Shown here piece after piece: positions 32,209 through 36,324 of a DNA stretch of 64,000 bases. The translations under genes were made by a program, and so were the position numbers. The stretch covers positions 137,442 to 201,441 of the forward strand of contig JAJDUK010000047.1 in the NCBI GenBank assembly GCA_022826665.1. The letters run 5' to 3'. The stretch is from Alphaproteobacteria bacterium (lineage in GTDB: Bacteria > Pseudomonadota > Alphaproteobacteria > UBA828). A model generated the notes under the pieces. The model was not told where the DNA came from and ran no database searches. It worked only from the letters and a program-made list of their open reading frames with translations. The stretch's first letter is position 1. Every line of letters begins with the position of its first letter.

Positions 32209-32598
32209 TCACTCGGCGCCGGTGGCTTCCTTGAGATAGGCGATCAGGTTGTCGCGGTCCTTTTCCTTCCTGACCCCCTTGAACGCCATCTTGTTCTTCG
32301 GAATGTAACCCTTGGGATCGGCAATATAGGCTCTGATCGTCTCCTCGTCCCAGACGATTGCCGCGTCCTTCATCGCGTCCGAGTATTTCTTGAAGCCCTC
32401 GGCCGTGCCCGAGGTGCGACCGAAGACGCCGTGGAGGTTCGGGCCGACCTTGTGTTTCCCGCCTTCCTTGACGGTGTGGCACACCTTGCACTTCTTGAAG
32501 ACCTTCTTGCCCTTCTTAACATCGGCGGCAATGGCGGAGGCGCTTGCCGCCATCATGAAGGTGGCGAGGGCAACGGCGAGGACGTGTCGTACGCGCAC
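32209..32598 (-). CDS. Class I cytochrome c (cytochrome c2-like)
   Basis: Signal peptide, [17 protein letters not shown] axial Met; AAGGAG RBS before GTG at 32598. Confidence 0.93.
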
Positions 32599-32730
32599 GG
32601 GTATCTCCTTAGGTCTGGTCCCGATCATGCGGTGAACGCGCGAACATAAGCCGGGTCCGCACCCGCGATCAAGCAGGCCATGCAGCCGGTGGCGCGCTGT
32701 TCCGGGGAGTAGCGCGCCACTAGCAGGTGG

Positions 32731-34014
32731 CTACTGGACCCGATACTCCTCGTCGAGGAAGAAGCGGCTGTCATAGTCCTCGACGCCAAGGTGGCACTCC
32801 GCGCAGAAGACGACGTTCTTGGCGCCCTTGCCGCCGGTCGTGCCGATGGTCCGGCCGCTCGGCATGATCAGCGTGTAGCGCCAGTCGCCGGTATCAGCGT
32901 TGAAGCCGGCTTCCATCTTCTCCATCAGGAAGAGTGGCCCGGCGCCGATCTTGCCGTTGGGTTTGACGGTGAAGCTGTCCTTGGCCAGCACGGTTCCGAC
33001 GGGCGCAGGCCCCGCCTCTTCGAAGAGGCTGTAATTGTCGGCGCCGATGTCGTTGGCGTAGTTGTTGACGTAGCGCGCGCCGTGGGTATCGGAGACGTAA
33101 GGCTGGGCCGCGACATTCCGCCAGTTCAGGTAGGACGCCGCCCACTGATTGCCCGACTTGGCGTATCCCTCGGCCATGACCGCACTGATGCAGGCGTAGG
33201 CGTCTCGGGCCTCGTCCGCGGTCAGCTCGACCTCTTCGCCGGCCGCGCAGGGGTTGCATGGATTGCAGGCGCCGCACGGTGCGCAGGGATTGCACGGACC
33301 ACATGGATTGCACGGGTTACAGGGGCTGCACGGGTTCGCCGCTGCACATGGGTTGCAAGGACCGCACGGGTTGCACGGTGCGCAGGCAGCGGCGCATGGA
33401 TTGCACGGCTCGCACGGGCTGCAGGGACCGCATGGGTTGCATGCTGTGGCGCAAGGGTTGCAAGGCCCACAGGGATTGCAAGCACTCGCGCAGGGATTGC
33501 ATGGACCGCACGGAGCACATGGCCCGCAGGGGCTGCCGGCGGCAGCGAGGCGCGGAACCACGCAGTCCGAACTGATCGCAGCGCCTGCTACGCACGGGTT
33601 GCAGGCGCCGCACGGCCCGCAGGCGCCCGCACAGGGATTGCAAGGGTTGCACGGTCCGCAAGGGCCGCAGGCGCCCGCACAGGGGTTACAGGGGTTGCAT
33701 GCAGCTGCGCAGGGGTTGCACGGATCACATGGATTACACGGTCCGCAAGCACCACAAGCGGCGGCACAGGGGTTGCAGGGATTGCACGGCCCGCAAGGTC
33801 CGCAGGCGGCCGCGCACGGGTTGCACGGACTGCACGGTCCGCACGGATTGCAGGAGGCCAAGAGCAGCACGCCCGGATCCTGATGCTGCGGGGTCGCCGC
33901 CGGGCTTTCGCCGGTGGATGTACCGGCCGTGGCGTGGCCGCCACTGGTGGCGACCGCGAGCCCGATGACCACAGGGACCACTGTTCCGGCAAGCAAGGTG
34001 TTCGAGCGTGGCAT
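32731..34014 (-). CDS. Secreted cytochrome P460-family protein with N-terminal (Cys-X-Pro)n repeat region
   Basis: GGGAGG RBS, hydrophobic leader, 202-aa Cys-rich region, then [29 protein letters not shown] and C-terminal CAECH. Confidence 0.82.
33247..33852 (-). repeat. Coding 9-bp-period repeat encoding (C-N/G/S/A/D/E-P)n
   Basis: 59 Cys in 202 codons by hand count; two blocks separated by [19 protein letters not shown]. Confidence 0.95.
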
Positions 34015-34146
34015 GTCGGGCCTCCCTTGATGGCGTGATGACGGCACTCTGAGCGAATTGTCGGCGAGCGCATGGTGCGGGGCAAACCCCTTCGACTCAA
34101 ATTTTTGTGATTCCCGTGCCGGGTGAGCGGCAGCTAGGCTGCTGCA

Positions 34147-35022
34147 ATGGTTTTCTCCCGCGCACTCCTTGCGGTCTGTCTCGCGACCTGCGGCCTGGTC
34201 CTCGGGGGCGCTTCATATGCTGGTTCGGTGCCAGTTCCAGTCCTGGCGGAGGTCCCGACCGGCCCCTTCATCGCGGGCTCCGACGCGGCCGAGCGGGAAT
34301 ACGCCTACCAGCTCGACGAGGCGGCCTACGGCCACTCCCGAACGCGGGAACGCGGCTGGTACGACCGCGAGCGCCCGCGCGGGACCAAGACCCTTGATGG
34401 CTTTTTCATCACGCGCACGCTGATCACCAATGCCCAGTACGCGGCTTTCGTGGATGCCACGGGCCACCGCGTGCCCGATGTCGATCCCGAGACCTGGCGC
34501 GGCTACCGGCTGATCCACCCCTACGAGCGCACCCGCCGCCACGCGTGGACGGAGGGAGTTCCGCCGCCTGGGCGCGAAAACCATCCCGTGGTCATGGTCT
34601 CGCACGACGACGCCAATGCCTACGCGGCCTGGCTCTCGGCCGAGACCGGGCGCACCTGGCGGCTCCCCACCGAGCTCGAATGGGAGAAGGCCGCGCGCGG
34701 CACAGACGGCCGCATCTTCCCCTGGGGCGATACGTTCGACCCGGCGCTGCTCAACAGCCATGATTCCGGTCCCTTCGACACGCTGCCGGTCGGCAGCTTT
34801 CGCGCCGGTGCAAGCCCTTACGGCCTGCTGGATCCGGCAGGCATGGCCTTTGAGTGGACCGCCTCGCCCGGCAATCCGGGGCGCTTCCTCGTCAAGGGCG
34901 GATCATGGGACGACAGCGGCTGCGGCATCTGCCGCCCTGCGGCGCGTCACGGTCGGCCGGCGGACATCAAGCACATCCTCGTCGGCTTCCGCCTCGTCGT
35001 CGATCCGGGCGCGGGGGGTTAG
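34147..35022 (+). CDS. Secreted FGE-sulfatase/SUMF1-fold protein
   Basis: Signal peptide; [41 protein letters not shown]. Confidence 0.88.
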
Positions 35023-35104
35023 CCTCCTCGGTCTGGCAAGAGCAAGCCCGCGGCACTATCTTTTCCTGGCGGAACGGCCAGCGAACGGGCGACAGAGCGG
35101 CAGA

Positions 35105-35866
35105 ATGGCCCAGGCTTCAGCGGCGAAGAGCGAGCGGCAGGAGGAGACCCGCCACCTCGACATGGCGACACAGCCGGTGAAGCGGCTGCGCATGATGCTC
35201 GCCGCCGGCGAGGAGGTGCAGGAGGTCGAGCGGGTGCTCGGCAGGACCGGCGATAATGTGGTGAGCGAGCTGCTGCGCGGGCGCGGGACGTTCTACGAGT
35301 GGGACCATTACCCGAAAGGGGACGTCTTCGACGGTCAGAGCCACTCCCAGTATTTCTACCACGCCCATCCCGGCGGCTTCCGGGACACCGAGCACGGCCA
35401 CTTCCACACCTTCGTGCGCGCCAAAGGGATGCCGCGCGGCATGAAGCCCATGCGCCGCAAGAAGCGCGACAAGTGGCCCATGGGGGACAAAGCGCTCACC
35501 CACGTCGTCGCCATCTCGATGGGGTCGAAGGGTCAGCCTCTCAGGCTTTTCACCACCAACCGCTGGGTCACTGGCGAGACCTGGTATCGAGCCGATGACG
35601 TGGCAAAGGTGATCGGCCGCTTCGTCATCGACCACGCCCGCCCGTCATGGCCGACCAACCGCTGGGTCGGCGCCATGATCCGCCTCTTCTGGCCGCAGAT
35701 CATCCTGCTGGTCAAGGCGCGTGATCAGGTGATCGAGAACTGGGCTGCCCAGAATCCGAAGAAAGATACCCTCGAGGATCGTCGCCTCGAGGTCGTCTCG
35801 CAGGCCGAGGTGGATATCGAGGCCCAGATTGCCGCTATCAAGGCGGCCCTTGCCGAGAGAACCTAA
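35105..35866 (+). CDS. His-rich hypothetical protein, DUF6969-like
   Basis: WDHYPKGDVFD, SQYFYHAH, EHGHFHTF, THVVAISM, LFTTNRWVTGETW; family name from memory; start 35105 or 35162. Confidence 0.65.
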   Translation: MAQASAAKSERQEETRHLDMATQPVKRLRMMLAAGEEVQEVERVLGRTGDNVVSELLRGRGTFYEWDHYPKGDVFDGQSHSQYFYHAHPGGFRDTEHGHFHTFVRAKGMPRGMKPMRRKKRDKWPMGDKALTHVVAISMGSKGQPLRLFTTNRWVTGETWYRADDVAKVIGRFVIDHARPSWPTNRWVGAMIRLFWPQIILLVKARDQVIENWAAQNPKKDTLEDRRLEVVSQAEVDIEAQIAAIKAALAERT

Positions 35867-35914
35867 GGCGCAGCCGACCCCCCGCTGTCACGGCTCCCGT
35901 ACCGCGATAAAGAA

Positions 35915-35936
35915 CGCCGCCTCTCCCGAGGCGGCG
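35915..35936 (-). terminator. Intrinsic terminator of the small Cys-repeat gene (possibly bidirectional)
   Basis: CGCCGCCTC-TCCC-GAGGCGGCG 9-bp stem followed on the minus strand by TTCTTT. Confidence 0.75.
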
Positions 35937-35967
35937 CCTTTGGATAATGTTGTCGTTACCCTTGAGC

Positions 35968-36324
35968 TTACTCGGCAGCACACGGGTTGCAAGCCTCGCA
36001 CGGATTGCAAGCCTCGCAAGGGTTGCAGGCATCCGCCACGACGATGCGCTCGTCCAAGGAAGACTCGCACGGGTTGCAAGCCTCGCACGGATTGCAAGCC
36101 TCGCAAGGGTTGCAGGCATCCGCGACGACGATGCCCTCATCCAAGGAAGATTCGCATGGGTTGCAAGCCTCGCACGGGTTACAAGCCCCGCACGGGTTGC
36201 ACGGATCCTCGTGCGAGTCCGCAACGACGATCGGCTGCTCCCCAGCGGACACGGCCGACGGCGCAAGAGCGGCGCCGGCCGCCATGGTAACGATACTCAC
36301 GGCGACCACTGTTTCCTTGATCAT
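35968..36324 (-). CDS. Small secreted protein with three Cys-rich CNPC cassettes
   Basis: GGAGGA RBS, ATG at 36324, Sec-type signal (…PSAVSA), 18 Cys in three cassettes, own terminator. Confidence 0.85.
35980..36231 (-). repeat. 87-bp tandem repeat (about 3 copies) containing an 18-bp sub-repeat
   Basis: Units start at 35981, 36068 and 36155; unit encodes [28 protein letters not shown](G/R). Confidence 0.95.

Follow-up and report, generated by a model that had tools for sequence, protein, structure and literature searches.

Five genes between apt and cysQ

The window analysed here is a stretch of 64,000 nucleotides from contig JAJDUK010000047.1 of an alphaproteobacterium (lineage UBA828). 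Our subject is a group of five genes in it (positions 32209‒36324), which encode a class I cytochrome c, two exported proteins with dense cysteine (Cys) arrays, an exported protein with the fold of formylglycine-generating enzyme (FGE) and a protein of the DUF6969 family. The genes sit between apt (31643‒32179, minus strand) and cysQ (36495‒37271, plus strand), and all gene positions and identities are as given in the preliminary description of the locus. On the minus strand, the cytochrome c gene (32209‒32628) lies downstream of a gene for an exported 427-residue fusion of Cys arrays to a haem domain of the cytochrome c'-beta/P460 fold (32731‒34014; PF16694), hereafter the repeat-P460 gene. 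An intergenic region (34015‒34146) separates the latter from a divergent pair on the plus strand, which encodes the exported FGE-fold protein (34147‒35022; 291 residues; PF03781, 151.8 bits) and DUF6969 (35105‒35866; 253 residues; PF22308, 280.9 bits; no signal peptide). The fifth gene, for a small exported poly-Cys protein (35968‒36324, minus strand; 118 residues, 18 Cys), faces this pair.

Signal peptides and lipoboxes were assigned by eye, and open reading frames (ORFs) by a simple rule rather than a gene finder. The 139-residue cytochrome c (PF00034, 46.6 bits) has an N-terminal export signal and a CKVCH motif. Among NCBIfam models it comes closest to cytochrome c-550 CycA, but at 119 bits it stays under the cut-off of 240 and does not count as that equivalog. 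The divergent arrangement of the repeat-P460 gene and the FGE/DUF6969 pair recurs in other families (loci L071, L079, L113, and L117). A simple scan of 34015‒34146, which is uninformative for this organism, found no sigma-70-like promoter. Metatranscriptome contigs at least 90% alike to the locus cover 28 of 30 bins, including the FGE-fold gene, DUF6969, and the small gene; they come mostly from relatives and are not used as evidence of expression, and the uncovered bins carry no meaning. In the whole source genome there is a single P460 gene (PF16694 genome scan, 33.7 bits), and matches to the CNPC pattern described below are confined to the two repeat genes.

The repeat-P460 fusion protein

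The fusion protein most likely starts at the ATG at 34014, which is preceded by AAGGGAGG; a GTG at 34047 is the alternative. Its signal-like N-terminus is followed on the minus strand by a hydrophobic motif, GVLLLAS (33853‒33873), Cys array 1 (33586‒33852, residues 55‒143), a central segment of 13 residues containing C-V-V-P-R-L (33535‒33573), Cys array 2 (33235‒33528, residues 163‒260), and the haem domain (32734‒33231, residues 262‒427) with its CAECH motif (32791‒32805). Array 1 has 28 Cys, mostly as C-x-P-C, and array 2 has 30. Together with one Cys in the central segment, these give 59 Cys in the repeat region, the same number as originally counted, and C275 and the two Cys of CAECH bring the total to 62. 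The spacing is exactly three residues in 48 of the 61 Cys-to-Cys steps, and 23 CNPC units are present.

In the AlphaFold2 model, built with 29 homologues, both arrays have a predicted local distance difference test score (pLDDT) below 50 and are modelled as disordered, resembling apo-metallothionein, and the haem domain is mostly above 90. The central segment is also modelled confidently (block pLDDT 66‒94), with a strand at 147‒152 and a helix at 154‒160. The C-x-[VI]-P-R-L motif is found in most fusion homologues and is missing in L072. FGE is known to target Cys within a C-x-P-x-R motif, and we considered the central segment, with its Arg at +4, as such a target. This is not favoured, since AlphaFold2 models the segment as structured and the small repeat proteins do not have it. 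In one homologue (P0113), the repeat region is interrupted by a LysM domain before the central segment.

Homologues of the fusion occur in many families, and several have lipobox-like N-termini by eye; some of the exported repeat proteins are probably lipid-anchored. Metagenome contigs from related strains carry in-frame 9-nucleotide insertions at 33502 and 33687 in the repeat region, a 48-nucleotide skip at 33639‒33688, and a 3-nucleotide deletion at 33943, all of which keep the frame. The Cys arrays change length fast while the reading frame is preserved.

At 30.6 bits, the PF16694 match exceeds the cut-off of 27; it covers residues 305‒427 of the 438-residue ORF form. A Foldseek search with the haem domain gave 11 PDB matches at E ≤ 0.001, all of them cytochrome c'-beta or P460 structures (target-normalised template-modelling scores 0.47‒0.66); these include the cytochrome c'-beta 7s5o (E = 1.9e-5), 7ead (3.4e-5), and the P460 structure 6hiu (4.9e-5). 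The haem domain is a member of PF16694 by both score and fold. F-C-x-x-C-H is invariant across the 29 haem-domain homologues, as are K345 and K366, and a residue-level alignment was obtained only to a c'-beta structure (7s5o). What defines P460 proper, the hydroxylamine-oxidising kind, is a covalent cross-link between a Lys and the haem. Two forms of the domain stand apart. In L078 (7560‒8270, plus strand), NPC repeats are inserted within the P460 domain itself. Repeat-less kin of 55‒56% identity serve as the periplasmic part of membrane-bound class III adenylate/guanylate cyclases (P0103 and P0112), which suggests that the periplasmic haem of this c'-beta/P460 subfamily binds a ligand in the manner of a sensor.

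The small repeat protein and the spread of the repeats

The start codon of the small protein, an ATG, is preceded by the Shine-Dalgarno sequence GAGGAGGAG. After its signal peptide come three units of the form I-V-V-A-D + (C-N-P-C-x-A)n with nine CNPC in total, for which an 87-bp unit is present in 2.6 copies at the DNA level. A comparison of 18 orthologues shows conservation over the N-terminal 38 residues, and the number of repeats and the spacers vary freely. A hydrophobic motif ahead of the first repeat, pointed out in the preliminary description for both exported proteins, is indeed present as GVLLLAS in the fusion and as three copies of IVVAD in the small protein, and variants such as V-Q-I/L-A-A/S-C recur in distant families. 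Repeat proteins elsewhere are either small (60‒170 residues) or fused to a P460 domain, and one relative (L141) reaches 573 residues.

A P460 fusion at L170 (4583‒5755, minus strand) has arrays of C-G-A-C and C-G-A-C-K-A-K with no C-N-P-C, and an FGE orthologue is adjacent to it. Since this proline-free fusion is linked to an FGE gene, proline is dispensable in the arrays, and what stays constant in the repeats is not C-x-P but a Cys at each third position, separated by small residues. The original definition of the repeat as Cys-X-Pro therefore does not extend to the whole family. The same locus counters the idea that the FGE-fold protein requires a C-x-P unit.

We searched 401 genomes of the class for coding sequence of two CNPC units within 15 nucleotides and found this pattern in 35 genomes. 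The reversed control matched one place in one genome, which excludes chance as the source of the repeats. The strict pattern misses looser arrays, such as the N-P-C-A-A-K proteins seen by eye near DUF6969 in L035. A first, broader pattern (TGYNNNCCN three times, then TGY) matched 83 of the 401 genomes, mostly through artefacts in other frames; it served only as a source of loci and is not counted. Such a codon-level C-x-P pattern mostly catches repeats in other frames, for example TGCCGCCCATGCC runs, which are probably Gly-Gly-Met tails encoded on the other strand, and screens that rely on patterns call for care on this account.

Linkage across genomes

In the same 401 genomes, DUF6969 is the most widely spread component (91 genomes, one of which, G268, is flagged unpublished), and an FGE orthologue, defined by E ≤ 1e-70, is found in 33. 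Carriers of FGE or repeat genes fall almost entirely inside the set of DUF6969 carriers: DUF6969 is present in 34 of the 35 CNPC genomes, the exception being a genome that is 79% complete, and in 32 of the 33 genomes with an FGE orthologue, the exception being the weakest FGE match. CNPC and an FGE orthologue occur together in 21 genomes, and 14 of the 35 CNPC genomes are without the orthologue. This sample is phylogenetically structured and relatives in it are not independent, so that Fisher values overstate the significance, though the nesting as such is evident.

Neighbourhoods were collected in two ways. The repeat-anchored set comprises 47 loci in 36 genomes, among the places listed, and all ORFs within 6 kb were clustered without selection by family. 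Clusters of antisense ORFs (of DUF6969, cytochrome c, and histidine kinase) were dropped by an overlap test, and a cluster resembling YeeE/YedE sulfur transporters turned out to consist of ORFs antisense to the FGE gene. Two chance-like loci (L086 and L088) were excluded from the counts, and L087, in which no ORF has three or more NPC, contributed nothing. The most frequent neighbour of repeat genes is DUF6969 (24 genomes), followed by cytochrome c and histidine kinase (13 each), the FGE orthologue (12), a MerA-like flavin adenine dinucleotide (FAD) disulfide oxidoreductase (9), DUF2336 and an ABC ATPase (7 each), and DedA/VTT, DUF3179, and an OmpR-type regulator (5 each).

The DUF6969-anchored set holds the best 80 of at least 584 loci, taken from named records and biased to closer relatives. 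An FGE orthologue lies directly upstream of DUF6969 on the same strand in 43 of these 80 loci, or 28 of the 53 that are at least 12 kb long. A repeat ORF with three or more NPC is present in 32 of 80 (25 of 53), cytochrome c in 23 (19 of 53), and a P460 domain in 16 (13 of 53).

Within the genus, each of the 14 loci collected carries all five genes, though insertions of 2‒5 kb separate some of them. In other families the order differs: DUF6969-FGE may diverge from repeat-P460-cytochrome c, and FGE-DUF6969-small repeat and small repeat-repeat-P460-DUF6969 also occur. In many families the genes are adjacent outside the apt/cysQ context (L071, L079, L080, L092, L109, L113, L115, and L118). Order-level relatives (L036‒L038) have cysQ-DUF6969-cytochrome c-apt without the FGE-fold or repeat-P460 genes and without any Cys-rich repeat ORF within 7 kb, so that a part of the layout in the window is old. 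The co-occurrence that was predicted for these genes thus extends across genomes, with repeat, DUF6969, FGE, P460, and cytochrome c genes clustering in many families despite rearrangement. We consider it very likely that the locus belongs to one conserved multi-gene system. This system is alphaproteobacterial, apart from a few metagenome-assembled genome records of Beta- and Gammaproteobacteria. Two non-pathogenic carriers are available in culture, Aestuariispira insulae CECT 8488 with the full set and Thalassospira profundimaris WP0211 with the small repeat gene, FGE, DUF6969, and cytochrome c, and the system is therefore directly testable.

Several further neighbours recur around these genes. 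Small NPC-repeat genes have a second context, in which DedA/VTT, the MerA-like FAD oxidoreductase, the repeat gene, and a histidine kinase stand on one strand (L073, L082, L093, L095, L100, and L110); in L093, DUF6969 lies between the small repeat gene and the histidine kinase. A DUF2336 gene, which is missing from the window, lies downstream of DUF6969 in the same orientation in 35 of 80 loci and scores above the cut-off of the NCBIfam "SpbR family"; a literature search under SpbR and DUF2336 returned unrelated uses of the name only. TRAP-transporter genes recur downstream of DUF6969, probably via synteny.

The FGE-fold protein and DUF6969

The PF03781 match of the FGE-fold protein spans profile positions 15‒254 of 255, and its N-terminus is hydrophobic and signal-like, by eye, in every orthologue. 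The 17 orthologues have a mean column identity of 71%. In their alignment, the loop G-G-S-W-D-D-x-G-C-G-x-C-R-P-A-A-R-H is invariant except for C262 (16 of 17); C259 is invariant. The nearest PDB sequences are ToxD (7spq), CalU17, OvsA, FGE (6muj), SUMF2, EgtB, PvdO, and PorK. The alignment with SUMF2 places C259 and C262 in the loop that we take to hold the catalytic Cys of FGE, and chains of true FGE failed to align over the C-terminal third of the protein. In true FGE, the two catalytic Cu(I)-binding Cys have C-x4-C spacing; the pair here is C259-G-x-C262, and the spacing is C-x2-C. No sulfatase substrate is encoded in the window cluster, and no sulfatase family is among the recurrent neighbours. 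The protein belongs to the PF03781 superfamily, but it has neither the catalytic motif of a true FGE nor a sulfatase substrate with C-x-P-x-R in its neighbourhood.

DUF6969 matches PF22308 over profile positions 2‒201 of 201 and is predicted to be cytoplasmic, with a set of invariant His, Asp, and Glu residues: H68, D73, D76, H86, H88, E96, H99, and H133 in an alignment of 26 sequences. The AlphaFold2 model (pLDDT 81.9; predicted template-modelling score 0.85) places the invariant HxH, E-H-G-H, and H133 on strands, making them candidate metal sites. Foldseek found no PDB match to this model at E ≤ 0.001 (best E 1.1), and a search of the ESM Atlas gave no usable match; a cupin-like reading of the HxH...E...H pattern stays a guess, given the lack of a Foldseek match at that threshold. 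A complex prediction of DUF6969 with the small repeat protein scored 0.08 against a mark of 0.32 and speaks neither for nor against binding. In our literature search, no paper contained the name DUF6969.

A possible role in periplasmic metal handling and its alternatives

Our tentative reading, to which we give somewhat less than an even chance, is that the arrays bind a soft metal of the copper type in the periplasm and that this binding is coupled to haem redox chemistry. The arrays would exit via Sec as disordered poly-thiolate chains, comparable to a metallothionein in the periplasm, and the thiophilic metal that they bind and buffer would most likely be Cu(I). The Cys pair of the FGE-fold protein may load, unload, or oxidise the thiolate arrays, on the model of true FGE, whose Cys pair holds Cu(I) and binds the substrate Cys. 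Electrons for cycling between Cu(II) and Cu(I), or between thiol and disulfide, would move through the tethered c'-beta/P460 haem and the soluble cytochrome c, and DUF6969 may be a cytoplasmic enzyme or chaperone that depends on a metal and is required by the exported parts. Composition, predicted disorder, localisation, and published fusions of bufferin, cytochrome c, and FGE domains support a metal-binding role. As to these fusions, a published survey reports Buf1|Cytochrom_C|FGE-sulfatase proteins, in which a copper-binding bufferin domain is joined to the same two domain families (PMC12452194).

Several observations weigh against metal binding. No recognisable Cu, Hg, or Cd resistance genes (CopA, CueO, Cus, or Mer transport) are among the recurrent neighbour families. 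The Cys in the oxidising periplasm may merely form disulfides, and the Cys pair of the FGE-fold protein does not have the catalytic spacing of FGE. DUF6969 is found without an FGE orthologue or strict CNPC in 46 of its 91 genomes, and five Azospirillum loci (L156, L171, L183, L188, and L190) have DUF6969 with no FGE, repeat, P460, or cytochrome c gene within 7 kb. Since DUF6969 occurs without these genes, its role may be broader than serving the repeats, or independent of them. Finally, rhodaneses encoded beside DUF6969 in 15 of 80 loci point to sulfur rather than metal. We hold the functional reading at its modest level because of the missing metal-resistance neighbours, these rhodaneses, and the occurrence of DUF6969 without FGE and repeat genes.

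[quoted passage not shown] DUF6969 before export, the FGE-fold protein after export, or both would convert Cys to a heterocycle, an aldehyde, or a cross-link, and the modified protein would act as a metallophore. DUF6969 has enzyme-like invariant residues and is tied tightly, almost exclusively, to the repeat genes, although it is also present at loci where no repeat gene is seen. The conserved 38 N-terminal residues and hypervariable core of the small protein are like those of RiPP precursors, and most repeat units in this system are C-x-P, as in the C-x-P-x-R motif of FGE; however, the proline-free C-G-A-C fusion of L170 still adjoins an FGE gene, and the 14 CNPC genomes without an FGE orthologue also speak against this explanation. 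Bufferins and oxazolins, signal-peptide precursors that are modified on Cys according to the survey (PMC12452194), provide a precedent, but families of RiPP recognition elements, proteases, and transporters do not recur nearby. In its specific form, which we likewise consider improbable, this alternative makes DUF6969 and the C-G-x-C FGE-fold protein new maturation enzymes that would produce a modified, haem-tethered periplasmic redox polymer from Cys-x-x arrays of up to ~60 Cys.

Slightly less probable again is a role in sulfur handling. The arrays would carry periplasmic persulfide or polysulfide sulfur, which rhodaneses load and unload, with the haem binding sulfide and cytochrome c taking the electrons. 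The rhodaneses in question (PF00581) have signal peptides and ~140‒180 residues, many end in P-C-x-x-C, and they often hold the convergent downstream slot that the small repeat gene occupies in the window; the 15 loci are L125, L133, L135, L138, L142, L146, L147, L150, L159, L163, L165, L168, L170, L173, and L178. Their adjacency to DUF6969 argues for this explanation, as does the MerA-like FAD disulfide oxidoreductase near repeat genes in 9 of the 36 repeat-anchored genomes. On the other hand, the window cluster contains no rhodanese gene, and sox, sqr, fcc, and persulfide dioxygenase are not among the recurrent neighbour families. The cysQ gene that adjoins the cluster in the window also seems to fit a sulfur role, but its adjacency with apt is ancestral synteny, since L036‒L038 keep it without the FGE-fold gene, the repeat-P460 gene, or nearby Cys-rich ORFs.

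We give still less weight to a device against nitrosative or redox stress, in which the haem would bind nitric oxide (NO) or hydroxylamine, the thiol arrays would serve as a sink by S-nitrosation or redox buffering, and cytochrome c would re-oxidise the haem. The nearest structures of the haem domain are NO-binding cytochromes c'-beta and hydroxylamine-oxidising P460, and the use of this P460 subfamily by class III cyclases (P0103 and P0112) as their periplasmic domain fits a ligand-sensing haem. Small repeat proteins, however, exist without a haem domain, many repeat genes are not P460 fusions, 14 of 35 CNPC genomes have no FGE orthologue, and nir, nor, and hcp genes do not recur nearby. Last, it is very improbable, and we disfavour the idea, that there is no system at all and that unrelated low-complexity exports are neighbours by inherited apt-cysQ synteny: the cysQ-DUF6969-cytochrome c-apt arrangement does persist in the order-level relatives that have neither the FGE-fold nor the repeat-P460 gene, but the adjacency of the genes in other orders outside apt/cysQ in many families weighs against mere inherited synteny, as does the nesting of 34 of 35 CNPC and 32 of 33 FGE genomes inside the DUF6969 carriers.

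Relation to known systems

The MNIO systems of bufferins and oxazolins, which are also the subject of PMC11626156 and PMC11252979, are nearest to this locus by logic. In those systems, copper-chelating RiPP proteins with signal peptides have Cys converted to thiooxazole or oxazolone-thioamide. Shared with the present locus are exported Cys-bearing precursors, with signal peptides assigned by eye in our case, that are sometimes long and repetitive and whose genes adjoin those of dedicated enzymes, either uncharacterised or oxidative; the survey mentions one protein of the oxazolin family that has 58 Cys (PMC12452194). The defining enzyme of the MNIO systems, in contrast, is missing here. The absence of a DUF692 gene, noted at first for the locus, holds for the whole source genome, which is 99.2% complete and gave no matches to MNIO/DUF692 (PF05114), a control search being positive in Caulobacter. 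DUF2063 and DoxX are likewise not among the recurrent neighbours. The bufferin repeat is EGKCG, whereas the repeat of this system is Cys-x-x. Its partner proteins are DUF6969 and an FGE-fold protein that stands alone, and the arrays are commonly fused to a c'-beta/P460 haem domain. The proposal of an analogous system with different enzymes is thus supported by the conserved co-occurrence across families together with the lack of an MNIO gene.

Individual components also resemble known proteins. The C-terminal domain of the fusion shares the beta-sheet fold and C-terminal CxxCH of cytochrome c'-beta/P460 (7s5o and 6hiu), with a similarity that is marginal (30.6 bits), but the fusion adds ~200 residues of Cys arrays in front, anchored by C-V-V-P-R-L. 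The FGE-fold protein shares PF03781 and, in the loop that follows G-G-S-W, a pair of Cys with SUMF1/2, ToxD, CalU17, the C-domain of EgtB/OvoA, PvdO, and PorK, and is periplasmic as are PvdO and PorK; it differs from true FGE in its C-x2-C pair, in the lack of a sulfatase in the cluster, and in having ToxD as its nearest solved sequence. The arrays are like metallothioneins and copper storage proteins in their very high Cys content, C-x-x-C spacing, few aromatics, and predicted disorder when metal-free. Unlike metallothioneins, which are small cytosolic proteins that fold around clusters of metal and thiolate, the repeat proteins are Sec-exported, reach 573 residues (L141), are fused to haem, and are genetically tied to two other families.

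To our knowledge, enzyme-matured periplasmic Cys-rich metal binders, the bufferins and oxazolins, are a recent addition, and all those known are MNIO-dependent. Our literature search found no description of the present gene set. The kind is known, namely exported Cys-rich proteins with private partners for maturation or handling, and it is built here from unrelated parts, as a separate gene set that realises the idea of an exported Cys precursor with private enzymes while using none of the known enzymes. The system provides a testable context for two uncharacterised families, DUF6969 and the C-G-x-C branch of the FGE fold, and a c'-beta/P460 domain that anchors a poly-thiolate chain could give this haem family roles other than in the chemistry of NO and hydroxylamine. 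If its cysteines turn out to be modified, the system would be of a categorically new kind. Should DUF6969 and the FGE-fold protein be maturation enzymes, the product would be a protein-sized RiPP wired via a c'-beta haem to cytochrome c, and a new class of biological metal/sulfur redox material unrelated to the MNIO systems.

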